Source of the DNA: a virus
Lineage: Duplodnaviria; Caudoviricetes
Direction: 5' to 3' (one strand)
DNA: 64,000 nucleotides
Virus record (IMG/VR): IMGVR_UViG_3300043104_000334
Below the pieces are notes generated by a model that saw only the letters and a list, made by a program, of their open reading frames with translations, did no database searches and was not told the origin of the DNA. The position numbers and the translations under genes are program-made. This document shows positions 7,865-22,727 of this stretch, piece after piece; within the stretch, counting starts at the first letter, position 1, and each line of letters opens with the position of its first letter.

Positions 7865-8323
7865 TTACTTAACCCAACGTTCTACTTCCTCACCATTATA
7901 GTAGAGGTGCAGAACTTTGTTTCCATCAGAATCTTTCTTGATATCAATTGTAAATCCGATGGTACTAAGAGCATCCAGATTCTCCTGCTTATAGAAATCA
8001 GCTGGTTCCCACGTAAGGTAAATACGCCCAAACTCAATACGGATTTCATCGTCGGTTTTATACCACTTGATGTCCGTTTCCGGGTCATGCATGCCAAGCT
8101 TATTTGAATAATCATTAAGCTTCCCGGAACTCGTCATAAAACTTCTGATATATTCGATATTCGTTTCGGTAGAGTTCTGATTGTTAACATACCAGATAAG
8201 GTATACACAAGTTGCAATTACTACAATTGCACAGGGAATGAGAATATATTTCATTGTTCCCGCTCCCTGCATAAAATCTTTCTTCTTTGTTACTTTCCCA
8301 AGTTTACGTTTTGCCATAATCAT
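7865..8323 (-). CDS. Single-pass membrane protein
   Basis: Basic N-terminus, TM YILIPCAIVVIATCVYLIWY. Confidence 0.7.
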   Translation of the reverse strand: MIMAKRKLGKVTKKKDFMQGAGTMKYILIPCAIVVIATCVYLIWYVNNQNSTETNIEYIRSFMTSSGKLNDYSNKLGMHDPETDIKWYKTDDEIRIEFGRIYLTWEPADFYKQENLDALSTIGFTIDIKKDSDGNKVLHLYYNGEEVERWVK

Positions 8324-8968: not shown

Positions 8969-10708
8969 TTATTTGTGTTTCCATTGAGCATATAGCTTTA
9001 TTGTTTTGTTGTTCTTTGTAGTTAAATTCTTTATCTTTGTTTCATCACTGTAGCTTATACCTGTACCATCCGCTTTAGTGTTCCAACCAATAAATATGTA
9101 GTTCTTTCTAGTAAAGCTGCATGTAGGTAATCTATATGATTTTCCATACTTGCATACTTTGCTACTCATCGTTCCAGAACCACTATTTGAATAAAATTTT
9201 ATTTTATACGTATTTGGCATCCATTTCGCGTATAGTATATAATTCTTCTTTTTATTCTTTTGTATCTTAGTGACAGCCTTTGTCAAATCTTTGTCACTAT
9301 ACCATCCATCAAATGTGTAACCTAAACGTTCAGGCACCAACAATTTTGAGCCGGTAGATGGTAGATAATATTTAGTCTTACTCCCATTATTGCTACCATC
9401 ATTCATGTTATATTTTATTTTATAAGCACGTTCTGCAGATGTGATGCTACTATTTAGCTTGCCTTGTGTTGCTGCAACTGCCCTAACCTTTGTATAATCG
9501 GTCACCGTAATCTTTCCACTATAAATGTAGGATTTACTACTCGCTACACTTGGAGTTGTTCCGTCGGTTGTATAATATATGATTGAATTGTTAGTCTTAC
9601 AAGACATGGAAATACTATAACTAGTAATAATCTTTTTACCAGTCTTAGTGTCACTACTGTACACGGGAATAGCCTTTATTGTAACATTCTTTGTAACATC
9701 TGTTACTGCTGACAATGTACCAACATCATATTCATAACTATCTGTATCCATAGTACACTCAGGTAAGTACCCATCCCAATAAGACAACGCTGTGTGATTC
9801 TCAACAGTATCTTTATACTTGCTATAGGCATAATCACTTCTTGCAAAATAAGTATAGTATGGTTCATCTTCTGATTCTTGATCATCAAAAGTACAATCAA
9901 CATTATACCATGAGCCATTCATTAAAACCTTATTCCACTCATGATTATACCCTGTTACAGATATACAGTCTACACCAATTGCATTACACAACATTTCAAA
10001 TACATGAGCATAACCAGCACACACAGTGCTATTAAAGCAAAGTGCACTATACGCACTTTGTGTTAAGTATATGTCATCCTTTTCATTGTCTACCATTTTG
10101 TTTTCATCAAGCACATCATGATTGTATGTTATGTTTTCGCAAACTAAATCGTGTATTGACTTAACAGTATTTAAAACATCTGTAGTATCAATTTCGATCT
10201 CATTAATCCATGACTCGATAGCGTCTTTAAATAAAGCTGTAGCTTCAGCACGTTCAACACCATTTGCAAAACTACTATAGGACACTAAGTAAATTCCATT
10301 GTGATTATCAAGATGCCCTGTCAGCACTGATGTCTGCAAATAGTAATATTGTGGATTAGAATATCTGAACATCCTTTCAACAAATACCTGTTGCTCTAAT
10401 GTAAGTTCATCAGAATATATAAAATCAGAAATATAACGAGAGTTATATTCTGTAAAGTCCTTATTCGTATTCATGTATGTTAAACATAAGTTATTCAGCC
10501 TATCCCAGAAATCACGCTCAGGTTCATCAAGTTGATTGTAGAAATAGTATGTGGAAAATTTGTCCCAATAGGATGTATATGTTTCAGCCCGTTTAAATGT
10601 ATTAACATACTGTATGTTTGTGCTACTACTCGCATATGCTATATTTGAACTACTAGTCAATGATAGCATTAGTACAAGTATTAAGCACTTCTTCAAATTT
10701 AAAAACAC
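8969..10708 (-). CDS. Secreted transglutaminase-like cysteine protease with FN3-associated (chitobiase C-terminal-like) domain and Listeria-Bacteroides (InlB B-type) repeats
   Basis: Signal peptide after the GTG at 10708 (AAAGGGAG RBS); catalytic VCAGYA / HEWNKV / NVDCTFD; IYYTTDGTTP; GYTFDGWY..LYAKW and FIGWNT..LYAQW repeats. Confidence 0.8.
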   Translation of the reverse strand: MFLNLKKCLILVLMLSLTSSSNIAYASSSTNIQYVNTFKRAETYTSYWDKFSTYYFYNQLDEPERDFWDRLNNLCLTYMNTNKDFTEYNSRYISDFIYSDELTLEQQVFVERMFRYSNPQYYYLQTSVLTGHLDNHNGIYLVSYSSFANGVERAEATALFKDAIESWINEIEIDTTDVLNTVKSIHDLVCENITYNHDVLDENKMVDNEKDDIYLTQSAYSALCFNSTVCAGYAHVFEMLCNAIGVDCISVTGYNHEWNKVLMNGSWYNVDCTFDDQESEDEPYYTYFARSDYAYSKYKDTVENHTALSYWDGYLPECTMDTDSYEYDVGTLSAVTDVTKNVTIKAIPVYSSDTKTGKKIITSYSISMSCKTNNSIIYYTTDGTTPSVASSKSYIYSGKITVTDYTKVRAVAATQGKLNSSITSAERAYKIKYNMNDGSNNGSKTKYYLPSTGSKLLVPERLGYTFDGWYSDKDLTKAVTKIQKNKKKNYILYAKWMPNTYKIKFYSNSGSGTMSSKVCKYGKSYRLPTCSFTRKNYIFIGWNTKADGTGISYSDETKIKNLTTKNNKTIKLYAQWKHK

Positions 10709-10892
10709 AGCATACTCCCTTTCGCTATTTGCAGTGCTCATATAATATAAACAATCTCTAATGAGCACTGTAATAGTCAGTTGAACAGTCAATGCCTATT
10801 CCGCATAATGTATACGAATATTACTGTGAATACACCAGAGAATATCGTTATAGCAATATCCAGAATAGTATTGATTGTATGTAAACATTCTA

Positions 10893-11336
10893 TCATTTTA
10901 ACATCTCCACAAATGTTATAAGATATTGAATCCTATCGTGAATAGTAAATCTATTACGATAGAAAAAGTGACATATAAGAATAGCAATTAAAATAGACAT
11001 CATAATATTCTCAGATTTTGTAATCTTTAATTGCTTTCCTAAAATCCATGATATCCATGTTCGTATCACTATGATTCCAATAATTGGTGACATTATAAAT
11101 AAAGCAGCATTACTGCTATATGCTGTCTCCCAGTCAAAGTGAGCCATAGCAATTAACATATGACTCACTCCACACCCTGGGCATAACAATCCAGTTATCA
11201 CATTAAACAAACATGGTATCCCAATATTAAATTTTGATACCGTAATCGCCTGTAATGACATTACAATGCATAAGCATGCAGTAAGTAACAGCCGCTGCTT
11301 CGGTGACTTAAGCCGTAGCGTTTGCATTGAGCTCAT
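10893..11336 (-). CDS. DUF2752-like membrane protein
   Basis: IPCLFNVITGLLCPGCG motif, several TM segments, adjacent to a DUF4234-like gene. Confidence 0.8.
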   Translation of the reverse strand: MSSMQTLRLKSPKQRLLLTACLCIVMSLQAITVSKFNIGIPCLFNVITGLLCPGCGVSHMLIAMAHFDWETAYSSNAALFIMSPIIGIIVIRTWISWILGKQLKITKSENIMMSILIAILICHFFYRNRFTIHDRIQYLITFVEMLK

Positions 11337-11643
11337 TCTGCATAATGCAGTAGTTCACAATACCAAGACCGAAAATGGCAAGAATCAAGAATAAGATGGT
11401 ATTGTTTCCACCCTTGATGCTGTCCATCTTTACACCCATTTTGTAATTCCAGTACCACCCATAGATACCGCAGGTGATAATAGTAAACAGGAATGCTTTC
11501 CCTCCGGTTGTCTGATAGTCATCATCCGGTGTAAGAGTATTCATGTCATTCGTGATACATACGAACCAATAGATTCCATAGATACCACACGTGATGATAC
11601 TCAATATGATCTGCACTACAATGTTACGATTTTTAATTTCCAT
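11308..11643 (-). CDS. DUF4234-like membrane protein
   Basis: Duplicated IITCGIYGxYW motif, C-terminal MQNELN. Confidence 0.85.
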   Translation of the reverse strand: MEIKNRNIVVQIILSIITCGIYGIYWFVCITNDMNTLTPDDDYQTTGGKAFLFTIITCGIYGWYWNYKMGVKMDSIKGGNNTILFLILAIFGLGIVNYCIMQNELNANATA

Positions 11644-11719: not shown

Positions 11720-12082
11720 TTATAATTCGATTGTAAATAACTCGTTAGTTGATAAGATACCGAATGTGTATGTATTCTCATCATAATCGTCAAGATACAG
11801 TGTGTCATCTGATATATTGTTTTCGATACAATATTCATAGCACCTTTCTGTAAGAATATCGAGAACACTCTCAGATAAACTTTCAGTGTCAATGATGCTT
11901 ACGCTAATGTTACTAAGCGACAGCACATTATCTTCATGCGAGAAACCATCCTCTTGTATCACTGAATCCTCTGTATCGCTTACATAAGATTCATATTCAG
12001 CAGAAGATTTCTTGCTGTACAGATATACACACAGTATCATCATAACAACCACAAGTAAACATAACAAGACTTTCTTCTTCAT
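11720..12082 (-). CDS. Small membrane-anchored partner protein 1 (YxxYV..DTE motif)
   Basis: TM followed by AEYESYVSDTEDS; directly downstream of the M15 peptidase gene. Confidence 0.7.
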   Translation of the reverse strand: MKKKVLLCLLVVVMMILCVYLYSKKSSAEYESYVSDTEDSVIQEDGFSHEDNVLSLSNISVSIIDTESLSESVLDILTERCYEYCIENNISDDTLYLDDYDENTYTFGILSTNELFTIEL

Positions 12083-12090
12083 AATTCACC

Positions 12091-13110
12091 TCAATGATTA
12101 AACACTGAGAAGTGCATTGGGTCACATGAACTCTTTCCCCAGTTACCTCTCCAGTATAATCCGTATTTTTCAAATATTTGCATTATTGTACACCCCTTAT
12201 ATATGCAAGTGTATTTGTACTGGTTATCAGTCAGCTTGGACCAATTCTCATAAGACCTTGGATATGGTCTATCAGACGAGCCATTGTTTGTATTCCAATT
12301 CCAAGATACCTCATTTCCTTTTTGGTCACTATAGTTTATATCTATAGTACCACCATACGAATGAGTTGAAGTTGAATGACTGCTGCTAGAATTATTCATC
12401 TCTCTTACACAATATCCACCAGCAACAGTAATCACAGGTTGATCAGCGCTTTCATATATCTCTTTAAAAATCTGCTTTATGATAGGTTGCAATGTAGTAC
12501 AACACTGAACATTTATTGTAGCCGATACCTTAGTAAGATCTGTACTCGTCGGATTAGGGTTTGCCCATTGCCAAACATCAACCTGAATAGAACTCATAGC
12601 CTGACTATTCAAACTCCTAATGGTACTACCAGTTATACTATCACCTTGCCACTGTTTCAAGTCTGAATACGTATATGATGAGTTTGGATATAACAATGCA
12701 AATACTGCATTACAAGACTTTGTACTTCCACTACTACTACCAGCAGCTTGAGCTGTTTGCACAGCAGCTAATAACTCATTCAAGTCTGTTGGAACATCTG
12801 CAGATATTGTTGCTGAACCTGTTGAACCAATTGAACTAGCCAAATTATATGAACCTGATGCCATTTCGTCAGCATCATCCTCTGACATACCAATAGACAA
12901 GGCTAAACTTGTGTCCCCAGTTAGACCTGTATAGGACTGTACAAATATAAGATTCTTAGATAAACCTGAAGTACTATCAGGTTTAATAGAGTCATACGTT
13001 TCGAGAATGCTATCATTTGATGATGTACCAATAAGCAGATATATAGCAACCACAAACCCTATAAGAGTTACCAAGAATCTGAACAGTTTAAATAATGATT
13101 TAGTATTCAT
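12091..13110 (-). CDS. Membrane-anchored M15-family zinc peptidase (D-Ala-D-Ala carboxypeptidase / L-Ala-D-Glu endopeptidase type)
   Basis: GYCVR, STHSYGGTIDIN, FEKYGLYWRGNW and DPMHFS motifs; N-terminal TM plus a carrier domain shared with 13531..14460. Confidence 0.8.
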   Translation of the reverse strand: MNTKSLFKLFRFLVTLIGFVVAIYLLIGTSSNDSILETYDSIKPDSTSGLSKNLIFVQSYTGLTGDTSLALSIGMSEDDADEMASGSYNLASSIGSTGSATISADVPTDLNELLAAVQTAQAAGSSSGSTKSCNAVFALLYPNSSYTYSDLKQWQGDSITGSTIRSLNSQAMSSIQVDVWQWANPNPTSTDLTKVSATINVQCCTTLQPIIKQIFKEIYESADQPVITVAGGYCVREMNNSSSSHSTSTHSYGGTIDINYSDQKGNEVSWNWNTNNGSSDRPYPRSYENWSKLTDNQYKYTCIYKGCTIMQIFEKYGLYWRGNWGKSSCDPMHFSVFNH

Positions 13111-13144
13111 AGTGTCTCCTTATAGAATTTGTAAATGCGAAATG

Positions 13145-13528
13145 CTAATTTCTAAATATTGTATAGTACAAGTTTTCCTCTGCGTCATACAAGATATCCT
13201 GCTCCTTATCACCAATCAAGCACTCAATTGTTTTTGTATCTTCATCAAAAGAAACAAAGGTACAGTTACTCCAATCAATTGCTTCATCCGGAAATGTGTT
13301 TATGAATACTTCAAGATATTCCGGATCGATTGCACTGACTGCATCTTCATTGTTGACGAATACTTTATTTGATGTCATCTCAGAAATAGCGACACCGTCC
13401 TCCGAATCATAGGATTCAGTGTCATTTTTAATATATTGTTCATAACTTGCATCCTTACTCATTAGTATGACAACAACAGCGCAAACTAATACAATAGTAG
13501 TAATGAGCAACGGAATTATTTTCTTCAT
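13145..13528 (-). CDS. Small membrane-anchored partner protein 2 (YxxYI..DTE motif)
   Basis: TM followed by ASYEQYIKNDTES; directly downstream of the C39-like gene. Confidence 0.7.
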   Translation of the reverse strand: MKKIIPLLITTIVLVCAVVVILMSKDASYEQYIKNDTESYDSEDGVAISEMTSNKVFVNNEDAVSAIDPEYLEVFINTFPDEAIDWSNCTFVSFDEDTKTIECLIGDKEQDILYDAEENLYYTIFRN

Positions 13529-13530
13529 GC

Positions 13531-14460
13531 TTACCCAACCTTTCTTATTACCCAGTATCCCTTGAAATGATAATTGTATCCTTTGTGGGATGTTGCGAGG
13601 TTTCCGCTGGAGTCATATAATGGATAGTCATAAGTACTCACTGTATCATACGATACGCTGAGATGATTCTTTGCCTTAGTAGAACTATCTGCTACATGAA
13701 ATGATTTTCCATCATCACTCAAATCAGTTATACAAATTATATGACCACCATCAGTAAATAATCCACTACTTGAACTGACAAGGATAGCAGTATTAGCATC
13801 ACCCGCATATTTTTCAATTGCTCGCATTACAACTGAACAACCCACTGTGCTCGATGAATACTCAACCATTTCATATGTGCCATATGTTCCTTTACTATTT
13901 AGTTCCGTAACAAATGTTGTTGGACCATCCCAACCCATACCATTTGAGTTACCCCACCCAGCTCTTACAGTACTAGGGAATTGACTTTTGAAATCTGGTG
14001 GAGAAATAATTGTTCCGGACAACTCAGCTATAACGAATGTCATACTACAAAGTCCACAGCCATTATTACTAATATTACCACTTGGCCCAAGTGATGTACT
14101 AGCATAATTTGATTGTTGTACCTGATAATGATTATGATTAGAACTATCATGGGGTGAATTACCTGCAGTGTCATTTGCATTCTTACTCACTGAACCATAG
14201 GTGCCCGCAGCCATTTCTTGTGCATCAGATTCTGATACACCAACCGATAAAGCAAGACTTGTATCTCCTGTAAGACCAGTATACGACTTTAGGAAAACAA
14301 GTGTCTTAGATAATCCTGAAGTACTATCTGGTTTAAGAGAATTATACGTTGCAATTATACTACTATCCGATGATGCACCAATCATAAGATACACAGCAAT
14401 AACAAATCCCAGTATTATCATAAGGAATTTAAATATCTTTGCTAATATCCTACCACGCAT
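13531..14460 (-). CDS. Membrane-anchored C39-like (papain-fold) cysteine peptidase
   Basis: Q..GCGLCSM (Cys), GGHIICI (His), VADS (Asp); shared N-terminal carrier. Confidence 0.75.
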   Translation of the reverse strand: MRGRILAKIFKFLMIILGFVIAVYLMIGASSDSSIIATYNSLKPDSTSGLSKTLVFLKSYTGLTGDTSLALSVGVSESDAQEMAAGTYGSVSKNANDTAGNSPHDSSNHNHYQVQQSNYASTSLGPSGNISNNGCGLCSMTFVIAELSGTIISPPDFKSQFPSTVRAGWGNSNGMGWDGPTTFVTELNSKGTYGTYEMVEYSSSTVGCSVVMRAIEKYAGDANTAILVSSSSGLFTDGGHIICITDLSDDGKSFHVADSSTKAKNHLSVSYDTVSTYDYPLYDSSGNLATSHKGYNYHFKGYWVIRKVG

Positions 14461-14468
14461 AATTCCTC

Positions 14469-15527
14469 CTATAATCCAGATGTGTAATAGTACTTATAGA
14501 ATATATATCTAAGCACATGTGATATTGTATAGTTGCCTTTGTTGGTTCTGCCAACGCCACCATGATAAGATGAGAAATCGATTCCTGTAATATTCTCAAG
14601 TTGTGTTACATAAGTCTTAACGTTGATATCGTCTAAGGTTATCTCTCTGTTATAAGCTTTCTCCCTAGCATCAACAAACATCTGGTATCCTACCTGATAT
14701 ATTGCATCTTGTACGTCTTGTCTGTTAATAACGTTAATAAGCTTTTTACCGAAGTCATACGTAATAAGTGCACATCCTTGCTGAGCTAAAGCCCAACAAG
14801 CATACACCGTAATATCACTAATAGGGTCAATTCCACAATTTATCCATGTAGTACTATATTGCCTAAGCGATGTTGTATAACTCCAAATAGGATTAACTCT
14901 ATTATCTAAATGACTTTCATCCCAGTCATATGTAGTTATCTGGAATGGACCAACACCAAGTCCTGTCATAGCAGACGTTACCCTGCTTCCACTTCTAGGG
15001 GATTGCAATAACGCCACCGGAATACGATAACATTTGCCATCCTCGTTTGTATTGTAATTGGACTCAGTGTTTGCCATATACCAAGCACTGTCTACCTGTT
15101 CAAGATTTTTGGTAAGAGTAATCCAATCAATTTCCTTGTTATAAGTAGCTGGATTAAAATCCATTACATTTGTTAGACTGATGCCTTTATAGTCGGAATC
15201 AATTTCACCCCACATAGTAGCAAGGGCCATGCATGGGTTAATAGTTTCCAAAGCCATCTTATACATAGCAGTATTCTTGTCGCCGTATATTTCCTTAAGA
15301 GTCTGCGAATTAACACTCGCTAATGAGTAGTAAATGTTTTCATCAACTGTTGTAAGGTATTCACCAAACACATCATCAATAGCTACAACAGACTGTGTTG
15401 TAAGCGTAACCTTATTGACAGTACTCTTAGTACTCGTATCAGCCACAGCTTCGTTAGGCTTGATACAAGCACACACAAGCAACGCTAACACTTGTATTAC
15501 AACAAATAATTTGACTACTTCTTTCAT
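14469..15527 (-). CDS. Secreted protein, possible lysozyme-fold hydrolase
   Basis: Signal peptide (..EAVA); ALATMWGE and GVGPFQIT resemble lysozyme-superfamily motifs. Confidence 0.45.
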   Translation of the reverse strand: MKEVVKLFVVIQVLALLVCACIKPNEAVADTSTKSTVNKVTLTTQSVVAIDDVFGEYLTTVDENIYYSLASVNSQTLKEIYGDKNTAMYKMALETINPCMALATMWGEIDSDYKGISLTNVMDFNPATYNKEIDWITLTKNLEQVDSAWYMANTESNYNTNEDGKCYRIPVALLQSPRSGSRVTSAMTGLGVGPFQITTYDWDESHLDNRVNPIWSYTTSLRQYSTTWINCGIDPISDITVYACWALAQQGCALITYDFGKKLINVINRQDVQDAIYQVGYQMFVDAREKAYNREITLDDINVKTYVTQLENITGIDFSSYHGGVGRTNKGNYTISHVLRYIFYKYYYTSGL

Positions 15528-16639
15528 TATAAATCATGCTCCGTAAAATACTTATAGATAGCATTTGCATATTTAAGACGCTTACTACCACTACACGAAC
15601 TCTGTACGAGGTAATACTTATTACCGGACTTACTCCACTGATCTTTGCAGTTCTTGTAATTCTCATATGTAATTGCTACACGACCAGTAGCATCCTCTAT
15701 TGTTGTTGCGTCATAAATATTGTCAAATACATTATAGACTTTTAATTCCTCAATAATCATACAGCACTCAGCTGTAATCATAGTGGCTTCAAAGTCACTT
15801 GGGAACTGTTCATTTGCAAGCTCGTAGTACTCGAGCAAGGATTGCTGTCTTCTTGAATAAGTCCATTGTACACAGCCATACCCATACTTTCCACCACGAC
15901 AGGTATCCCTAACCTGCTCCATATTTGTACTGCATTCATAGGAACCTTGCTTCATTGCGAAACACCCCTCTACGTAAATGTTCCCTAAGATACCAGCAGC
16001 ATTCTCAGCAGGAACACCTTGTTGATTTACCAAGAAATCCCATAAGACTGCAATGGTGTTAATCTTATCTTTACAATCCCAATCAGGGGTTTCGTATTCA
16101 GTATTGTAAATCTCAACAAGTCTCTCAGTGTTAATGTTTACAGGTTCACTGTCATAAAGTGTACATCCACGGTCCTCAAGTTTTATACTTCCGATAATAA
16201 CTGAACTATCATAATAAGGAGAACTGAGAACATCATTCTCTTCATCAATAATTGTAGCCAGCTCATTCAGGTTAACCGTGCCAGACTTAGCATCTTCATT
16301 ATCAAGAGCTTTTACTTCGGTATCCCTAAGTTTGTAGAATGTACTAGATACACCGGCAACAGGAATATCAGATACACTGTTAAGTAGTTTAGCCTCACTG
16401 TAAATATTGATAAGGCGCAACGATACCCCTGCCGTTGTTTCTGCAGATTGACTTACCTCAATAAGCTCAATTACATCAGTGCCAGAGTCATCACACAAAT
16501 TGTATAAATCACTTAATGAGGCAAGACTGCTACAGAATACATAAAGGTTCAACACAAATATCAACACGATAATCGTGTTACCAACCTTTGCCAACGCGCT
16601 TCCATGTTTCATTACTACATCACTCAGTTTCTTAATCAT
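15527..16639 (-). CDS. Membrane-anchored phage-tail-lysozyme-domain protein
   Basis: AAGILGNIYVEG, GYGCVQWT, TYEN..RLKYANAIY. Confidence 0.8.
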   Translation of the reverse strand: MIKKLSDVVMKHGSALAKVGNTIIVLIFVLNLYVFCSSLASLSDLYNLCDDSGTDVIELIEVSQSAETTAGVSLRLINIYSEAKLLNSVSDIPVAGVSSTFYKLRDTEVKALDNEDAKSGTVNLNELATIIDEENDVLSSPYYDSSVIIGSIKLEDRGCTLYDSEPVNINTERLVEIYNTEYETPDWDCKDKINTIAVLWDFLVNQQGVPAENAAGILGNIYVEGCFAMKQGSYECSTNMEQVRDTCRGGKYGYGCVQWTYSRRQQSLLEYYELANEQFPSDFEATMITAECCMIIEELKVYNVFDNIYDATTIEDATGRVAITYENYKNCKDQWSKSGNKYYLVQSSCSGSKRLKYANAIYKYFTEHDL

Positions 16640-16671
16640 CTTTTCGATTCTCCCATCTTTTCGATTTGATT

Positions 16672-17097
16672 TTATTCTTCAGCATAGCTTCGATAAATAG
16701 TGCTAAGCATTTTCATTGCAGTCTCATTTAAGAACGTTCCTGCATCATAGTCAAACACATAATCGAAGTTGTACGTGAATTTGTTTCCATTATACATGGC
16801 AGATACAATAGGTTGCCCACCCTGCAACTTAGCCCGAACTTTCATAAGAGCAATACCAACGAAGTTCTTTGCAATCTTATGTTTGCACCGTTCACAATAG
16901 CAACATCCAAGCATCGAGTCATGTATGTGTGTCGAGTCATAGACAAGCATAGACTCACCGGTTTCGAGAAGTTCATTCCGATACTTTTCGTTACCAAGAC
17001 ACTTAAGGTAAACTACCCTAATAATGTCCTTGACATTTGTGTACTTGTCAAACTCACCATCATGAACCAATGTTTTACTTACTTTAACTATGTTCAT
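16672..17097 (-). CDS. Degenerate/truncated NADAR (YbiA-like) domain protein
   Basis: K..NEKYRNELLETGESMLVYD...D..LGCCYCERC...NFVGIALMKVR matches the C-terminal half of NADAR; the N-terminal half is missing. Confidence 0.6.
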   Translation of the reverse strand: MNIVKVSKTLVHDGEFDKYTNVKDIIRVVYLKCLGNEKYRNELLETGESMLVYDSTHIHDSMLGCCYCERCKHKIAKNFVGIALMKVRAKLQGGQPIVSAMYNGNKFTYNFDYVFDYDAGTFLNETAMKMLSTIYRSYAEE

Positions 17098-17108
17098 CAG
17101 ATCCTCCT

Positions 17109-17507
17109 TTAATAATCATATTTATCACCTGCATTGACTGTAAGCTTACCATCAGAATCAATTGTGATAGAGTACATTCTACTATTATAATAGAACAATG
17201 CACTATACCCATTTTCCTCTGTGTAGTACACCCAATTACACTCAGCAGCTACATCATAAGGGATACCATAGACTTCAAGAACTTTCTCATTTTCTGTAAG
17301 CACACTCGCAATGAAATTATCATCCGCATCCGTTGTACTTGTGATGTCAATCTGATTAGCCTCAGTGTCTTCTGCTACATAATCAGCATACTGATTTCTC
17401 TGCTTCGATTGATAAACCCATAAAGCAAAACAGATAGTCGCAAATACAAGAAATACGATGATATCCCTTATTACTTTTGTATTCAATCTAATTTCTTTAC
17501 GTTCCAT
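17109..17507 (-). CDS. Small membrane-anchored partner protein 3 (YxxYV..DTE motif; start revised to MERKEI)
   Basis: TM followed by NQYADYVAEDTEA; directly downstream of 17522..18790. Confidence 0.7.
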   Translation of the reverse strand: MERKEIRLNTKVIRDIIVFLVFATICFALWVYQSKQRNQYADYVAEDTEANQIDITSTTDADDNFIASVLTENEKVLEVYGIPYDVAAECNWVYYTEENGYSALFYYNSRMYSITIDSDGKLTVNAGDKYDY

Positions 17508-17521
17508 ATTTCCTGTTCTCC

Positions 17522-18790
17522 TTACTTTAATATATTCTCGTACACAAATATTGCTATACCACACCGCTTCTCCCAGCCACCAATTTCTTCACGTTCGTCA
17601 TAACTAACCTGACTTGCGCAATAATGTGTCCTGCCGCGTTTGTACTGAGATTTAAGTGCACACCGCTCATCCTTACTTGCAAAATAATATGTAGCCTGTT
17701 CAACACTATTGGCATTTTCATTAAACGTTTTAGCATCACTTGCCTGATAACTAGCTTTCATATACGTCAATATATATTCACATTGAAAGTTTGCATCGTA
17801 CCACTGTACTCCTTTATCAATTGCCGCTTGAACTATTTCCTTTGCAGTTCCTCCATCCCACTGTAATACACCTATCGCTTTGCCATTCTTAAAATCACCA
17901 GTTATCTTATTATTAACTATTTTAGCAGCTCCTCCACTCGCCCAATTAACTACTTCCTCATTTGACATTGGGCCATTGCTGCTAGGTGTTTCTTCTGCAC
18001 CTTGTCTACATCCCATATAGTACCCACACTCAGCATAGAAGTTACCAAGAACCCCGGCTATAGCATTTTTATTATATCCAGCAGCAGCTAACGTATTTGT
18101 GACAGCTACCATATTTTTTATTAAATCTGTCGCACCGTCTGGCGCTACAAGCAGTGACGTCATATAATCCTGACCGTTATCATCTACTGTAGCACCATGT
18201 AACGTATTTGTTTGATACAACCCAGGATATTTACTATCCCAATTTGTATTAGTAAATGAAATTGTTATAGGGTCTCCTGTAAGTCCAGAGAAATCACCAA
18301 CGCCAAGACTTGTACCACCTGATGAAACAGTTGATGAAGAACTGGTACCGGCTTCCGCAGTAGCCATATCAGCATCTTCCTGCTGAACATCACTGCTCAT
18401 AGTAAGCGTAACAGTTGTTGTGCCATCAGCATTTACTGTCACGTAAAATAACTTTTTATCAAATCCATTCTTTGAATTGCTAACACGAGCCGTAAGAGAC
18501 GTATACTGGTCTACAAGTTTGTCCAATGAGACATTGGCGGACACAATAAGGTATATTGTTATGACTACAATCAATCCAACAACTACTAAGCTGATAGTCG
18601 GATTAAATAATATAAATGTCAGTATACTAGGCTTATGCTTTGTTGGACCTTTTTCAGCTATCTTAGCATCCCTAGCAGCCTTTCTCGCTTGTGCTCTCTT
18701 TTCCCACTTTGAATAAACCTTTACAGACTCGGTTATTGTCTCCTCACCGTGGTCAGTCATGGTAGTGACTTGTCTCATTTCATACTTCAT
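17522..18790 (-). CDS. Membrane-anchored phage-tail-lysozyme-domain hydrolase
   Basis: NAIAGVLGNFYAECG, AIGVLQWD, ATYYFASKDER..R; N-terminal carrier shared with 19596..20462. Confidence 0.8.
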   Translation of the reverse strand: MKYEMRQVTTMTDHGEETITESVKVYSKWEKRAQARKAARDAKIAEKGPTKHKPSILTFILFNPTISLVVVGLIVVITIYLIVSANVSLDKLVDQYTSLTARVSNSKNGFDKKLFYVTVNADGTTTVTLTMSSDVQQEDADMATAEAGTSSSSTVSSGGTSLGVGDFSGLTGDPITISFTNTNWDSKYPGLYQTNTLHGATVDDNGQDYMTSLLVAPDGATDLIKNMVAVTNTLAAAGYNKNAIAGVLGNFYAECGYYMGCRQGAEETPSSNGPMSNEEVVNWASGGAAKIVNNKITGDFKNGKAIGVLQWDGGTAKEIVQAAIDKGVQWYDANFQCEYILTYMKASYQASDAKTFNENANSVEQATYYFASKDERCALKSQYKRGRTHYCASQVSYDEREEIGGWEKRCGIAIFVYENILK

Positions 18791-18798
18791 ATTATCAC

Positions 18799-19149
18799 CT
18801 ATTTATTCAGCAGACTACGGTACATTATCTCTAATGTAGTAAGCCTTCTGTTGTCATCGACTGATGGATTTACAAACGTACTTGGTGAGTATGTAACAGC
18901 ATCTAAGAATCCATTCTTAGAGATAGACCTGACAAGCGCTGATGCTGTTTCTTCATTTGTAACAATACAAATGTCAAGCGCTTCATCATAAGCTGCGATA
19001 AAATGTACAACAGCCGGAAATGTATAATCGGACACTTCTTCCAACTTACATGTGTCATCGTAGACCGTAAGCTTTTTGTTTATGTACACACCAGAAATTT
19101 CATAAGCCGCTAATTTCTGCGTATCATCATTCCTTAATAGTATTCTCAT
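18799..19149 (-). CDS. Hypothetical protein (116 aa)
   Basis: Co-oriented ORF with RBS. Confidence 0.65.
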   Translation of the reverse strand: MRILLRNDDTQKLAAYEISGVYINKKLTVYDDTCKLEEVSDYTFPAVVHFIAAYDEALDICIVTNEETASALVRSISKNGFLDAVTYSPSTFVNPSVDDNRRLTTLEIMYRSLLNK

Positions 19150-19170
19150 ATAGTTGCCCTCATCCCTTAA

Positions 19171-19599
19171 TTATTCTGCATTAGTGAGTTCGTTTATTGT
19201 ATCAGAGTCGCCAATATATTCATCATCGACATATAGCATTGCATAGAACTTATCATCAGTTATCCAGAAACTAGCATATGCATCGTTATCAAAGATTAGC
19301 ATACCGTTTACTGTATTATCATCGTTGCTTTCTCTAACATTAGATATTTGCACAAATGAGTATCCATAAAGTGAGCTAACATTGTTTATGAAGTCACTAA
19401 CATCCTGTCTGCCTTTTATGGAATCAGCCTCTAAACTATCGTAATAATTGAATGTGTCTGTTGTGCTGTCTTCACTTGATATGTATGCATCATATGTATT
19501 TTTATACTCACAATATTTGTGGTAGCATATGACTATAGCAATTATATTAAGTACCATAAGGATACCCAATATAACTAGACTCTTGTACTTGTCTTTCAT
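19171..19599 (-). CDS. Small membrane-anchored partner protein 4 (YxxYI..EDS motif)
   Basis: TM followed by NTYDAYISSEDST; start overlaps the stop of 19596..20462. Confidence 0.7.
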   Translation of the reverse strand: MKDKYKSLVILGILMVLNIIAIVICYHKYCEYKNTYDAYISSEDSTTDTFNYYDSLEADSIKGRQDVSDFINNVSSLYGYSFVQISNVRESNDDNTVNGMLIFDNDAYASFWITDDKFYAMLYVDDEYIGDSDTINELTNAE

Positions 19600-20462
19600 A
19601 CGTAAGACCCCCTGACTATCTTTACAATCTTACCCTTCCATTCTGGATGGCATACAGATGTTCCAGGATTACCGTGCCATGAACCTGTACCACTTGGATA
19701 CCATGTAGGAACACTTGTATTGTTTTTGTTTACGAGAAACTCTATTGTATTCATAGTGTCTGCACTCGCTTCATGTCCCCATACTGTCCAGTTGCTATCA
19801 CCACTACTTTTTATTTCACCCACTACACATGGTATTATTACAGTGCCATTAGACGTCTCAACATAAACATCAATTGTCTGTCCGACATCAGCTATGCCAC
19901 CATTATCAATCCATGATACTGCAACAACATACCTACCATCAACGACACCAAACCCTTCATCATCAAAAGCTGTTACATCACCGATCGTACTATCCCAATT
20001 AGGATATTTACTTTTTCGCCATATGTACTGTGGGGATGATTGACTTGTTATCATCTGCCAACCCATATACGTATAACAAAACTTGCTGTAAGGACAGCTA
20101 CTAAAGTCTATTGTATCACCATCTACGATAAGTTTGGTGTCACCTGAACTAGATTCAGTAGTACCAGCTTCCGCAGTAGCTGTATCAATATCTTCCTGTT
20201 GTATATCACTACTACTTGAGGTAAGTGTCAATGTTGTAGTTCCATCAGCATTTACCGTAACATAGAATAATTTCTTATTAAATCCATTCTTTGAACTAGT
20301 AGGCTTACTCGTCAATGACGTGTACTTTTCGATTAGAGTGGAGTCTTTCACCTGTATGGAGCAAACTAAAGCAATATATGCAGCTCCTAATATTAAGACT
20401 AATAATACAAGCCTTATTAAAATAGGAGACACTTTATGCTTTCCATTATTTTGATTATTCAT
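19596..20462 (-). CDS. Membrane-anchored putative cell-wall enzyme (C-terminal domain possibly 3D/double-psi-barrel-like)
   Basis: Shared carrier KNGFxKKLFYVTVNADGTTT; C-terminal TYMGWQMIT..SPQY..GRYVVAV..VGQTIDV..IPCVVGEIK. The fold assignment is inference. Confidence 0.5.
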   Translation of the reverse strand: MNNQNNGKHKVSPILIRLVLLVLILGAAYIALVCSIQVKDSTLIEKYTSLTSKPTSSKNGFNKKLFYVTVNADGTTTLTLTSSSSDIQQEDIDTATAEAGTTESSSGDTKLIVDGDTIDFSSCPYSKFCYTYMGWQMITSQSSPQYIWRKSKYPNWDSTIGDVTAFDDEGFGVVDGRYVVAVSWIDNGGIADVGQTIDVYVETSNGTVIIPCVVGEIKSSGDSNWTVWGHEASADTMNTIEFLVNKNNTSVPTWYPSGTGSWHGNPGTSVCHPEWKGKIVKIVRGSYV

Positions 20463-20534: not shown

Positions 20535-20553
20535 TAGGGAGAAATTCTCCCTA
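20535..20553 (-). terminator. Inverted repeat overlapping the virB4-like stop codon
   Basis: TAGGGAGAA-A-TTCTCCCTA. Confidence 0.45.
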
Positions 20554-22635
20554 TGAACCGGACATAACATTTTTCTCTTTTACCGGTGTATTTACTTTAT
20601 ACTTCTTAAACTTGCCATCATCGTTCTTTTCAACCTCGACCTGAATAATAGGATAAAGATTCTTGTTCTGCATATTGTTAATAAACACAAAACAGTTCTT
20701 GTACCTGTTTGAACTTCCGGGTATCTTTATGTGGTCCTCGAGATGCTTAAGCCCAAACTGCTCAATAACAACTTTACGTGCATCAAGCGTAAGCTCACCA
20801 ACAAACAGTCCTCTTGTATTTTCAATAAGAGGCTTGGCAATTTCACTATTCTGCAATGCCTGTACTGAATTACCCAAGAGCAAGGTATCCTGATTCTGTG
20901 ACCGTCTAAGCGTATACTCCTGAACGTACATCTTCATGATTTCATCAGAAACAACCTGTGACTCTTCAAGTATTTTAAATGTACGCTTACCCTCAGCATA
21001 CTTTCTTGTTGTGAACTCACCATTAAGCTTTGACATATACAGAAACTTAAGTCGGAATAAATCCTCATCAATGTCTGAAATTGTTGCATCTCCAAGGATA
21101 CCAAAGTCAAATGCTAATGTGTCACTGTGCAGGATTTTGGCGTAATCAAACTCACGCTTAAACACATAAGACTTTGAACCTGTTGCAGACATAAACATCC
21201 TGAGTGTTCCGATAACAGTCTTATGAATGTTATACTGAGCACGCTTCTGTGGAGTAAGGTATTTCTCAAACCTATCAAACACTTCATAAGGATTCAACGA
21301 TTCCGTTGTGTTCCATGAGTTCATGTTTGTAGGTATCGCACCAATCGAGATGTACAATGTATCCAAGAATTCATCAAGCAATTCTTCAAGTTCAAGAAGC
21401 GTTTCTCTATCCCGAACACCAGATAAGATAATCATCTGTTCCTTTGAGAACTTTACTCTTGATTTGAAATAGGCTTCTGCATTATCCTGCGATGTATCTT
21501 CCTTGTGCATAACGAAACTGTTGATATACTCAGTTGACATAGGACGCAATGATACTGTATAGCCATTTGTAGCGTTGATGAAATTGGTATACTCATTACC
21601 TTTAATATCCATCATAACACAAGCAGAACCATTTTCATAAGCTGACTGTGCCATATTCATTGCGAGGACAGTCTTACCAACACCTGATGGCGCTACACAA
21701 TACATATTACGTGCAACAGTTATCTCACTAAAGTCAATATAGTAAGGCGTACCATTAAGCACATTCTGTCCGACATAATATCCTGTCTTATCGTTGTATG
21801 AGCCGCAGTTGGGAACAATCTGTGACAAAATGACATTTGTTGTCATAACAGGTGTTGTACCCTTGAGGTCATAGTTCTTTCCACCAAACATTGAAATGTA
21901 CTCAAGGTCACTACGAATAGAACCATGTGCTGGCATATAGATACATCCCATGGAACCAAGCATATCGAAGATAATCTTCTCTGCGTTGTTAAGGGTTTGA
22001 ATATCTTTAGCCCGAACAATAAGGTACATTCGAGTGTTCTTCAGTTGTTTGCCAGACTCAGCAACTTTTACTGTATATAGACACCTCGCTGACCTTTCAC
22101 GCATTCTCTTTGATGTAAGGTCAGAATCAAGGTTATTTTCCCACATGTTAATACGACTTTTTAAACCGGAATTATTAGGGTCATAATCATAATTACTATT
22201 CTTGAATGTTGCATCAAGTATAGCTCGATTGCCCCTATCACGAAGAGCAGAGTTAAGCACTCCTAAAAGTGTAATAGGAGTGCTTGTTCCCAACTCATAG
22301 ATTTGTATGATTGTTGACATGTACAGCTTTGTAACATACATGTTATTCGTAATAAGAATCCTGTCTCCGATGTTATCTGGAATCTTACCTCTGTCTTTCA
22401 TCGTAAGACTAACGAGATAAGAAATCCACATCTTCACCCATAAGAATCTATCGGGCTTTACTTTGCCCTCATTACGAATCTCAGCAGCTTTCCTAACTGA
22501 TTTCCGTATGTTCTTCTGAGTCTTTTCTGCGTCTACTTCGCCATACTCGTCATAGGCAACCTCAACTTTAGAAGCCTCTTCAATGTTATTACTCCTCTGC
22601 TTTGAGTCAGCCTTTAACTCATCCCTAAGCGCCAT
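20551..22635 (-). CDS. virB4: VirB4/ConE/PrgJ-like type IV secretion ATPase (start revised to MALRDE)
   Basis: About 695 aa; GYYVGQN..GTPYYID, Walker A APSGVGKT, MDIKGNEY, Walker B KILEESQ, LLGNSVQ..LIENT; AAGGAGG RBS. Confidence 0.75.
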   Translation of the reverse strand: MALRDELKADSKQRSNNIEEASKVEVAYDEYGEVDAEKTQKNIRKSVRKAAEIRNEGKVKPDRFLWVKMWISYLVSLTMKDRGKIPDNIGDRILITNNMYVTKLYMSTIIQIYELGTSTPITLLGVLNSALRDRGNRAILDATFKNSNYDYDPNNSGLKSRINMWENNLDSDLTSKRMRERSARCLYTVKVAESGKQLKNTRMYLIVRAKDIQTLNNAEKIIFDMLGSMGCIYMPAHGSIRSDLEYISMFGGKNYDLKGTTPVMTTNVILSQIVPNCGSYNDKTGYYVGQNVLNGTPYYIDFSEITVARNMYCVAPSGVGKTVLAMNMAQSAYENGSACVMMDIKGNEYTNFINATNGYTVSLRPMSTEYINSFVMHKEDTSQDNAEAYFKSRVKFSKEQMIILSGVRDRETLLELEELLDEFLDTLYISIGAIPTNMNSWNTTESLNPYEVFDRFEKYLTPQKRAQYNIHKTVIGTLRMFMSATGSKSYVFKREFDYAKILHSDTLAFDFGILGDATISDIDEDLFRLKFLYMSKLNGEFTTRKYAEGKRTFKILEESQVVSDEIMKMYVQEYTLRRSQNQDTLLLGNSVQALQNSEIAKPLIENTRGLFVGELTLDARKVVIEQFGLKHLEDHIKIPGSSNRYKNCFVFINNMQNKNLYPIIQVEVEKNDDGKFKKYKVNTPVKEKNVMSGS

Positions 22636-22727
22636 AAATATAGCCTCCTTCAAAAACAATTCTTAGCTGAATAATCCAATAGCACTGTGCTCATCTCATC
22701 AGCAAATTCGTATTCATGTTCTAAGCT

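Follow-up and report, generated by a model that had tools for sequence, protein, structure and literature searches.

Exchangeable cassettes of wall hydrolases and bitopic partners beside a VirB4-like ATPase: a possible wall-breaching module of large Lachnospiraceae elements

Positions 11,720 to 20,462 of IMGVR_UViG_3300043104_000334, an IMG/VR virus record (Duplodnaviria; Caudoviricetes) analysed here as a 64,000-nucleotide stretch (the window), encode four putative cell-wall hydrolases (H1 to H4) built on a common juxtamembrane carrier, each followed by a small bitopic membrane protein (its partner, p1 to p4). The region is read here as the hypervariable wall-breaching module of an envelope machine resembling a type IV secretion system (T4SS), composed of exchangeable cassettes that each join a hydrolase to a cognate tethered inhibitor or regulator; the probability of this reading is put at roughly 0.45. 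Analysis of the locus and its relatives establishes the identities of the domains, their modular shuffling, the co-variation of partner and catalytic domain, the exchange of cassettes and the coupling of the genes within them. All genes of the region are on the minus strand, and the eight hydrolase and partner open reading frames (ORFs) named in a first-pass annotation of the DNA are present where it had placed them.

A common carrier with unrelated catalytic ends

H1 (12091-13110; 339 aa) and H2 (13531-14460; 309 aa) are 73% identical over a 59-residue segment directly behind the hydrophobic N-terminus and are unrelated beyond it, just as the first-pass annotation had described them, with a common transmembrane (TM) segment and carrier and different ends. 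A second version of the same juxtamembrane segment of about 60 residues is common to H3 (17522-18790; 422 aa) and H4 (19596-20462; 288 aa). The annotation had taken this version for a different carrier; it is indeed shared by H3 and H4, but the two versions can be aligned with invariant Y, S, K and L and therefore form one carrier family with two subtypes, subtype 1 in H1 (coded at 12847-13023) and H2 (14197-14373) and subtype 2 in H3 (18347-18535) and H4 (20163-20354). When a carrier profile was run against all six-frame ORFs of the window, the matches were exactly H1 to H4 and only as full-length genes (97.8 bits for H3, 82 bits for H4, 81.7 bits for H2), so the likeness is not due to chance. 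At the DNA level the carriers of H3 and H4 are 75-83% identical across some 160 nt and lack exact patches, which argues that there was no very recent gene conversion.

The carrier is followed in each protein by a Ser/Gly-rich linker (Ser-rich in H4) and then by mutually unrelated catalytic ends. H1 to H4 and a fifth protein of the locus, F, each have a single hydrophobic N-terminal segment, and the hydrophobicity of the anchors is strong, with a Kyte-Doolittle mean across 19 residues that exceeds 1.6. H3-type hydrolases have in addition a basic, conserved cytoplasmic tail of 60-85 aa ahead of the TM segment, which other carrier proteins do not have; in H3 it comprises about 65 aa, and residues 1-65 are conserved in three of the related loci described below, which are designated by L numbers (L003, L008 and L012). 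Such a tail could contact the cytoplasmic ATPase, and it would be typical of a resident membrane protein.

The first-pass annotation had raised the question of whether other genomes attach further C-terminal domains to the carrier, and they do. A word-index search with the carrier returned only the element's own two proteins, and an exhaustive profile search of 1.84 billion representative proteins gave 105 matches at E<=1e-3. In these proteins, nearly all of which have a length of 220-440 aa, the matched segment is close to the N-terminus; the exceptions are three proteins of more than 1,600 aa with weak internal matches in multiple stretches. The C-terminal parts of the 98 analysable carrier proteins belong to 11 sequence-unrelated families (28, 24, 17, 11, 5, 4, 3, 2, 2, 1 and 1 members), the largest being Phage_lysozyme2 and the fifth M15_4, with no Pfam match for the rest. 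The second and third largest have invariant Cys and His residues in papain-like contexts. Profiles of three unnamed catalytic families gave nothing significant against PDB sequences, the lone hint being a match of the largest unnamed family to NlpC/P60 (E=0.47), and the carrier profile had no match there.

Catalytic ends and the core enzymes F and E

The C-terminal end of H1 is a Peptidase_M15_4 domain (41.5 bits, Pfam cut-off 25) with the zinc-ligand motifs STHSYGGTID (of the SxHxxGxAxD type) and, toward the C-terminus, DPMH. H2 matches Peptidase_C39_2 at 21.0 bits, under the Pfam cut-off of 24, and its Cys135 (GCG) and His240 (GGH) are invariant in five homologs; hhalign gave no alignment between the H2 family and a C39_2-positive relative. 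The C-terminal domain of H2 is probably a papain-like Cys peptidase. Thus the zinc peptidase end first proposed for H1 stands as named, and the C39-like end proposed for H2 is a sub-threshold assignment that rests on the 21 bits and the invariant Cys and His. H3 has a Phage_lysozyme2 domain (71 bits) and H4, without a Pfam match, has a different end, both as the annotation had said.

The C-terminal 160 residues of H4 are 39-55% identical to other TM-anchored proteins and to soluble lysins, where the domain is the unannotated N-terminal domain of CHAP lysins or of NlpC/P60+Amidase_5 lysins; because it is common to lysins it is considered a lysin module. An AlphaFold (AF2) model of the domain, built on 14 homologs, has a predicted local distance difference test score (pLDDT) of 85.6, and its matches by Foldseek and VIA-align are almost only double-psi beta-barrel (DPBB) proteins (expansin, cerato-platanin, GH45, MltA and YuiC), all of them weak (E>=0.05, Z<=4.5). 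The fold is probably DPBB, and H4 is read as a glycan-binding or glycan-cleaving wall module. A profile of the domain gave nothing significant against PDB sequences.

Two further exported proteins of the locus, F and E, have no carrier match and no partner. F (15527-16639; 370 aa) consists of a TM segment and a Phage_lysozyme2 domain (Pfam, 70 bits) and has orthologs of 27-55% identity in L001, L003, L010, L016 and L044. E (14469-15527; 352 aa) is a signal- or lipoprotein-like exported protein, and its orthologs across the element family are 42-67% identical; no other exported protein of the module is as well conserved. Its WGE and GxGPxQ motifs, which are invariant, recall lysozyme-like transglycosylases. 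E had no match in Pfam, NCBIfam or PDB sequences, and because of the lack of a Pfam match we only infer a role as a wall enzyme. Both F and E are conserved across the family and in no case is a partner present. The count of four wall hydrolases in the first-pass annotation therefore holds for the carrier enzymes with partners, but with F and E the locus has six exported wall-enzyme-like genes. A search of PHROGs with the locus matched the two lysozyme genes only and none of the partners.

Partner proteins

The partners p1 (11720-12082; 120 aa), p2 (13145-13528; 127 aa), p3 (17109-17507; 132 aa from its ATG) and p4 (19171-19599; 142 aa) each have one N-terminal TM helix with a YxxY motif directly behind it (YESY, YEQY, YADY and YDAY, respectively). 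The ectodomains of 75-105 aa have a net charge of -14 to -21 (-21 in p1, -20 in p2) and a pI of about 4.05. The earlier description of each hydrolase as followed by a small single-TM protein with a juxtamembrane motif and an acidic C-terminus is thus confirmed for all four, in TM/YxxY part and in charge. Each partner gene either overlaps the stop codon of its hydrolase gene with its start or begins at most 14 nt beyond it, and is preceded by a Shine-Dalgarno sequence of its own: p4 starts on the stop of H4 (ATGA), p2 follows H2 after a 2-nt gap, and p1 follows H1 after an 8-nt gap, with GAGGTG as its Shine-Dalgarno. For p3 the start is most likely the ATG at 17507, which has AGGAG ahead of it and corresponds to the 132-aa form of the public gene call, and not the upstream GTG. 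From this arrangement each hydrolase is predicted to be translationally coupled to its partner. Every partner-type gene in the locus is behind a full-length hydrolase, with no orphan tips and no immunity arrays.

A search of 14 partners against Pfam gave no family other than a sub-threshold SocA_Panacea match in one relative, and no PepSY domain. The AlphaFold model of p4, built with 17 divergent partners (pLDDT 77), has a TM helix at residues 3-41 that runs through YDAY, then a disordered acidic linker, and then one helix packed on five antiparallel strands. The weak Foldseek rows are led by CagD of the Helicobacter pylori T4SS (E 0.14) and include NTF2-like and cystatin-like domains, the VIA list is dominated by the TM helix, and a search for the partner fold in the Atlas gave nothing above chance.

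Comparative anatomy of related loci

The position directly after the VirB4-like ATPase is kept in 47 loci from related elements, and nearly all of those with enough flank encode, within 10 kb after the ATPase, between three and seven proteins that are 250-600 aa long and have a TM segment at the N-terminus. A large TM protein is directly followed by a single-TM protein of 90-240 aa in 35 pairs from 21 loci. The named domains in these relatives are Phage_lysozyme2, Hydrolase_2 (SleB-type), C39_2 (50 bits), a GDSL esterase fused to lysozyme2, a VgrG3_C-like domain, Amidase_3 with NlpC/P60, and M15_4. All nameable C-terminal domains are wall-active, as hydrolase or esterase, and none is a nuclease, a deaminase or a pore former; about half of the families are nameless. 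Clustering of the protein halves by BLAST joins the carrier to many C-terminal families and places single C-terminal families on three or four different N-terminal modules. In the window, L003 and L008, which have ATPases 84-85% identical, one and the same position upstream of the M15 pair is occupied by a different catalytic domain in each element, always on the same carrier and each time with a different partner behind it.

The partner ectodomains were compared without the TM segment and motif, and with the exclusion of a conserved 152-aa family and of two SGNH-like enzymes in partner position. Between elements, ectodomains were similar in 5/15 comparisons with similar catalytic domains versus 0/390 with dissimilar ones (p=3e-8); with ATPase identity below 70% the counts were 3/11 versus 0/351 (p=2e-5). 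Partner similarity had no association with similarity of the N-terminal module. In these comparisons, then, the partner ectodomain tracks the catalytic domain and not the carrier. The YxxY motif co-occurs with the canonical carrier (9/12 versus 2/23), in counts that are not phylogenetically independent and from which the regular-expression window clipped three true cases.

Identities of catalytic domain and partner are incongruent with that of the ATPase. L008 and L033 have ATPases only 33% identical, catalytic domains 45% identical and partners 32% identical; for L036 and L029 the corresponding values are 35%, 46% and 30%. Conversely, the window and L003 have ATPases 84% identical but M15 proteins only 33% identical, and the M15 protein of the window is 37% identical to that of L033. 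This incongruence indicates that units of enzyme and partner have histories other than that of the backbone, and thus that cassettes have been exchanged. The first-pass annotation had recognised in the locus the grammar of polymorphic loci (a constant N-terminus, a swapped C-terminus and a variable neighbour), and the 11 C-terminal families, the co-variation of the partners and the exchange of cassettes all agree with it. In L010 (14768-15373) and L044 (14037-14633) the gene in partner position after a Hydrolase_2-type enzyme encodes a signal-peptide protein of 198-201 aa with the motif FIGDSRTVG (SGNH/GDSL-like), which by its sequence is another enzyme and not a YxxY partner.

The ATPase and the element family

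The ATPase (20551-22659; 702 aa, or 694 aa in the public gene call, which begins 8 codons later) matches the Pfam TraG P-loop family PF19044 (29.9 bits), and its best NCBIfam matches are all VirB4 families (VirB4_plasma at 2e-11, the CD1110 family at 6.8e-9, VirB4_CagE and TraC, over a range of 2e-11 to 2.4e-4). It has more than 268 homologs, and the best 120 are 52-100% identical and located on contigs of 150-290 kb, one of them labelled as a Lachnospiraceae metagenome-assembled genome (MAG). A search with an ATPase alignment gave two loci in Lachnospiraceae MAGs and 45 in metagenomes, with ATPase identities of 31-86%. The cassette proteins themselves are found on only about 13 near-identical contigs of up to 200 kb. 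Judged from these alignments, the ATPase marks out a large family, made up of elements of 150-290 kb in Lachnospiraceae MAGs, and hydrolase batteries are present in nearly all of them.

The ATPase had no tblastn match in 50,697 phage and 72,556 plasmid records, scans of IMG/VR gave none, whether run with the single ATPase or with an alignment of 14 sequences, and nothing significant was found among PDB sequences. No description of the element family or of such cassettes was found in the searched literature. An assignment of the element family to the Hodor megaplasmids (PMC12934698) was rejected, these being larger than 300 kb with Rep_3 and VirD4 and with no such cassettes reported. A conserved bitopic protein of 152 aa (7865-8323) at the far edge of the variable region is 78% identical in L008 and 21-36% identical in distant elements; conserved family-wide, it is a candidate PrgL/VirB8-like component. 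In L045 (BNJT01002820.1, 10281-16582) many short ORFs stand in place of an intact ATPase and an intact E ortholog, through either a frameshift-rich assembly or decay of that copy of the element.

Gene order and neighbouring genes

In the order of transcription the genes are the ATPase, H4, p4, an ORF of 116 aa, H3, p3, a NADAR-like ORF, F, E, H2, p2, H1 and p1, after which come DUF4234 and DUF2752 membrane proteins and then a secreted transglutaminase-core protein of 607 aa. The 116-aa soluble ORF (18799-19149) has no Pfam or NCBIfam match and has relatives of 23-25% identity upstream of an H3-like gene in L003, L005 and L007. The NADAR-like ORF between p3 and F (16672-17097; 141 aa) covers the C-terminal half of the NADAR domain (PF08719, 34.1 bits versus a cut-off of 35.1), has no TM segment and is probably outside the wall module. 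The neighbouring DUF4234 (95.5 bits) and DUF2752 (50.6 bits) proteins (10893-11643) are absent from this position in L003 and L008. The 607-aa protein (8969-10792), directly downstream of the cassette, has Transglut_core, CHB_HEX_C_1/Fn3_assoc and two Listeria-Bacteroides repeats, and may be further surface or wall-active cargo.

Promoter and terminator scans of the region gave signals not above shuffled expectation, and operon boundaries are therefore not callable. Four gut metatranscriptome libraries contain short contigs of at least 99% identity over parts of most cassette genes, a weak hint only, since such contigs cannot show transcription, strand or level.

Interpretation of the cassettes

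According to the favoured reading, the machine would belong to the 150-290 kb extrachromosomal elements of Lachnospiraceae, with F and E as its conserved core and exchangeable two-gene cassettes around that core. The first gene of each cassette would encode a peptidoglycan hydrolase tethered at the outer face of the membrane by the TM segment and the carrier of about 60 residues. The second would encode a bitopic protein of the same topology, with its constant TM/YxxY part beside the carrier and its variable acidic alpha+beta ectodomain presumably bound to the cognate catalytic domain. As a tethered inhibitor or regulator the partner would shield the wall of the producer (cis-protection) for as long as the enzyme has not been engaged at the machine. 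Jointly the enzymes might cut glycan, stem-peptide and cross-link bonds and open the wall of the donor, perhaps that of the recipient too, and the diversity of the cassettes may be driven by host wall chemotypes. Physical binding of the partner, inhibition and a role in transfer are the parts of this proposal that we infer. An inhibitor or regulator is favoured over a targeting adaptor because what varies in the partner goes with the catalytic domain and not with the carrier, because the core enzymes F and E need no partner, and because the role of VirB8 could fall to another bitopic protein, which is conserved. By analogy, the position after a VirB4-like ATPase and the order of hydrolase and then bitopic protein look like the gene grammar of Gram-positive T4SSs, which makes a machine-associated role look more likely than killing.

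Several results weigh against this reading. The NCBIfam scores of the ATPase are only 19-42 bits versus cut-offs of 325-643, so that it is VirB4-like only below threshold, and neither a relaxase nor VirD4 was found in the window; for these reasons the assignment of the machine to the T4SSs is provisional. The first-pass statement that the cassette adjoins VirB4 is to be read in the same way: the ATPase is adjacent and matches only VirB4 families in NCBIfam, but with sub-threshold scores. Small residues (G-T/A-S-S) are found behind the hydrophobic N-terminus of H1 and H2 and could be a signal-peptidase site, in which case those enzymes would be released and not tethered. Similarity of partners was detectable in just a quarter to a third of the comparisons with similar catalytic domains (6/24, 5/15 and 3/11), and the fold of p4 had no significant structural match by Foldseek or VIA. 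Complementarity of charge between enzyme and partner was considered and rejected, the catalytic domains not being basic.

Of the other readings, an interbacterial weapon, the Gram-positive counterpart of the X-Tfe/X-Tfi pairs of the X-T4SS or of bacteriolysin/immunity pairs, is unlikely: the hydrolases would be released by signal-peptidase cleavage, or handed over at contact, to lyse rival Firmicutes, and the partners would be the immunity of the carrier and its kin. The constant N-terminus with swapped C-terminal domains and a co-varying small neighbour, the exchange of cassettes out of step with the backbone, as in toxin/immunity loci, and the possible signal-peptidase motif behind the hydrophobic region of H1 and H2 would all fit, and peptidoglycan hydrolases are common antibacterial effectors (PMC10933484). 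However, a search of H1 to H4 against Pfam at E<=0.1 gave catalytic families only and no known trafficking domain (of the LXG, XVIPCD, PAAR, RHS or WXG type), there are no orphan toxin tips and no copies of the carrier beyond the four genes, and the domains that can be named, for about half of the families, are all directed at peptidoglycan, with no other toxin class. The cytoplasmic tail of the H3 type fits a resident membrane protein, and no VirD4 was seen in the window. The proposal in the first-pass annotation of effectors and immunity proteins for contact killing thus goes beyond what the locus shows and, given that all nameable domains are wall-directed and that neither a known trafficking domain nor any orphan array of toxin or immunity genes was found, appears less likely than a machine-associated role. 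A related possibility, that the cassettes are an arsenal of a Gram-positive T4SS-like machine directed at recipients or competitors, in which private sets of enzymes decide entry or killing and cognate tethered immunity is kept in the carrier cell, is likewise improbable.

It is somewhat less probable still that the partners are PrgL/TraH-like (VirB8-like) adaptors that target the hydrolases to the channel without inhibiting them. The arrangement has precedent in pCF10 and pIP501, where a small bitopic VirB8-like protein is encoded after the hydrolase and PrgL is bound by PrgK (PMC11323569, PMC12102498), and the p4 model, a helix on an antiparallel sheet, has CagD and NTF2-like domains among its weak fold matches. 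However, the ectodomains are hypervariable and track the catalytic domain, where one would expect the carrier, as the constant part, to be bound by an adaptor. At 75-105 aa they are also shorter than VirB8 domains, the family-wide bitopic protein at 7865-8323 is a better VirB8-like candidate, and the core hydrolases F and E do without a partner. A lysis module, with the small TM proteins as holins or pinholins and the TM enzymes as signal-arrest-release (SAR) endolysins that free the element or its particles by host lysis, is very improbable: the enzyme families are of phage type (Phage_lysozyme2, and the H4 domain common to phage lysins), every cassette enzyme is paired with a small membrane protein and the nature of the element leaves room for it, but the anchors are strongly hydrophobic, unlike SAR segments rich in Gly/Ala, the ectodomain of the partners is large and acidic where a holin would have a short charged tail in the cytoplasm, no known lysis cassette resembles the four to six pairs of an element, the partners had no PHROG lysis or holin match, and the ATPase has no counterpart in the phage records.

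Significance

Conjugation between Gram-positive cells has to cross two thick walls, and to our knowledge only single multidomain hydrolases (PrgK, TraG and CwlT) have been studied in this role. The locus would represent an alternative design, in abundant, uncultured 150-290 kb gut elements, of a conserved core with exchangeable cassettes of enzyme and partner on a common carrier. If the partners inhibit, they would be a diverse new source of specific protein inhibitors of peptidoglycan hydrolases and a model for how several lytic enzymes can be kept safely at the surface of the cell that makes them. If recipients or rivals are the targets of the enzymes, host range or competition in giant mobile elements would be determined by the cassettes; should the arsenal described above be real, it would be the first T4SS-linked polymorphic effector/immunity system in monoderms and a direct determinant of the host range of giant gut elements. 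In either case the carrier (about 100 clusters with no known relative), the partners and several of the unnamed catalytic domains are, as judged by the profile searches, new protein families. We rate as new the partner-less F and E, the element family, the C-terminal families joined to the carrier, the co-variation of partner and catalytic domain and the exchange of cassettes.

Comparison with known systems

In Bacillus spores, SleB and YpeB are a wall hydrolase and an N-terminally anchored partner encoded in a bicistronic operon, and the partner ectodomain controls or stabilises the hydrolase. The cassettes resemble this pair in that a hydrolase would be co-expressed with an anchored partner, and Hydrolase_2 (SleB-type) domains are present in the cassettes of relatives; unlike the partners, YpeB has PepSY, and its context is germination and not a mobile element. 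Polymorphic toxin/immunity loci, reportedly described by Zhang et al. in 2012, have in common with the cassettes a constant N-terminus, swapped C-terminal domains, a co-varying small neighbour and recombinational exchange. The cassettes differ from them in having no known trafficking domain, orphan tips or immunity arrays, in a repertoire that is apparently of wall hydrolases only, and in being embedded in the operon of a putative secretion machine. The first-pass annotation had stated that characterised Gram-positive T4SSs typically have one VirB1-like hydrolase, which is broadly right as general background, although pCW3 has two.

The X-Tfe/X-Tfi systems of Xanthomonas and Stenotrophomonas are similar in that a T4SS locus has several peptidoglycan hydrolases with a common non-catalytic domain, each encoded beside a cognate envelope-located protein that acts against cis-intoxication (PMC10933484, PMC8740702); protection by the X-Tfi immunity proteins is mainly of this kind (PMC10933484). 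However, XVIPCD is C-terminal, cytoplasmic and read by VirD4, whereas the carrier follows a TM segment near the N-terminus and is extracytoplasmic. The window also showed no VirD4, the host of the element is a monoderm, and killing is at most a possible role of the cassettes.

Among known systems the nearest precedent is PrgK-PrgL of pCF10, together with TraG-TraH of pIP501 and CwlT of ICEBs1: a VirB1-like hydrolase with a bitopic protein encoded after it. As there, the hydrolase gene of the locus is just downstream of VirB4 (here a VirB4-like gene), the N-terminal TM segment would be an anchor with the catalytic domains outside, and the next gene encodes a small membrane protein predicted to be N-in/C-out. 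In pCF10, PrgK binds the downstream bitopic PrgL and the hydrolase is restrained, its muramidase being down-regulated by the protein's own extra domains (PMC11323569), and both TraH and PrgL are VirB8-like (PMC12102498). No sequence similarity of the locus proteins to PrgK or PrgL was found. The activities combined in the one multidomain protein PrgK are spread here over four to six polypeptides, with a dedicated carrier in common, a fast-evolving partner for each variable enzyme and pairs that are exchanged between elements. Restraint of the enzymes, if there is any, would act in trans rather than within the protein as in PrgK.

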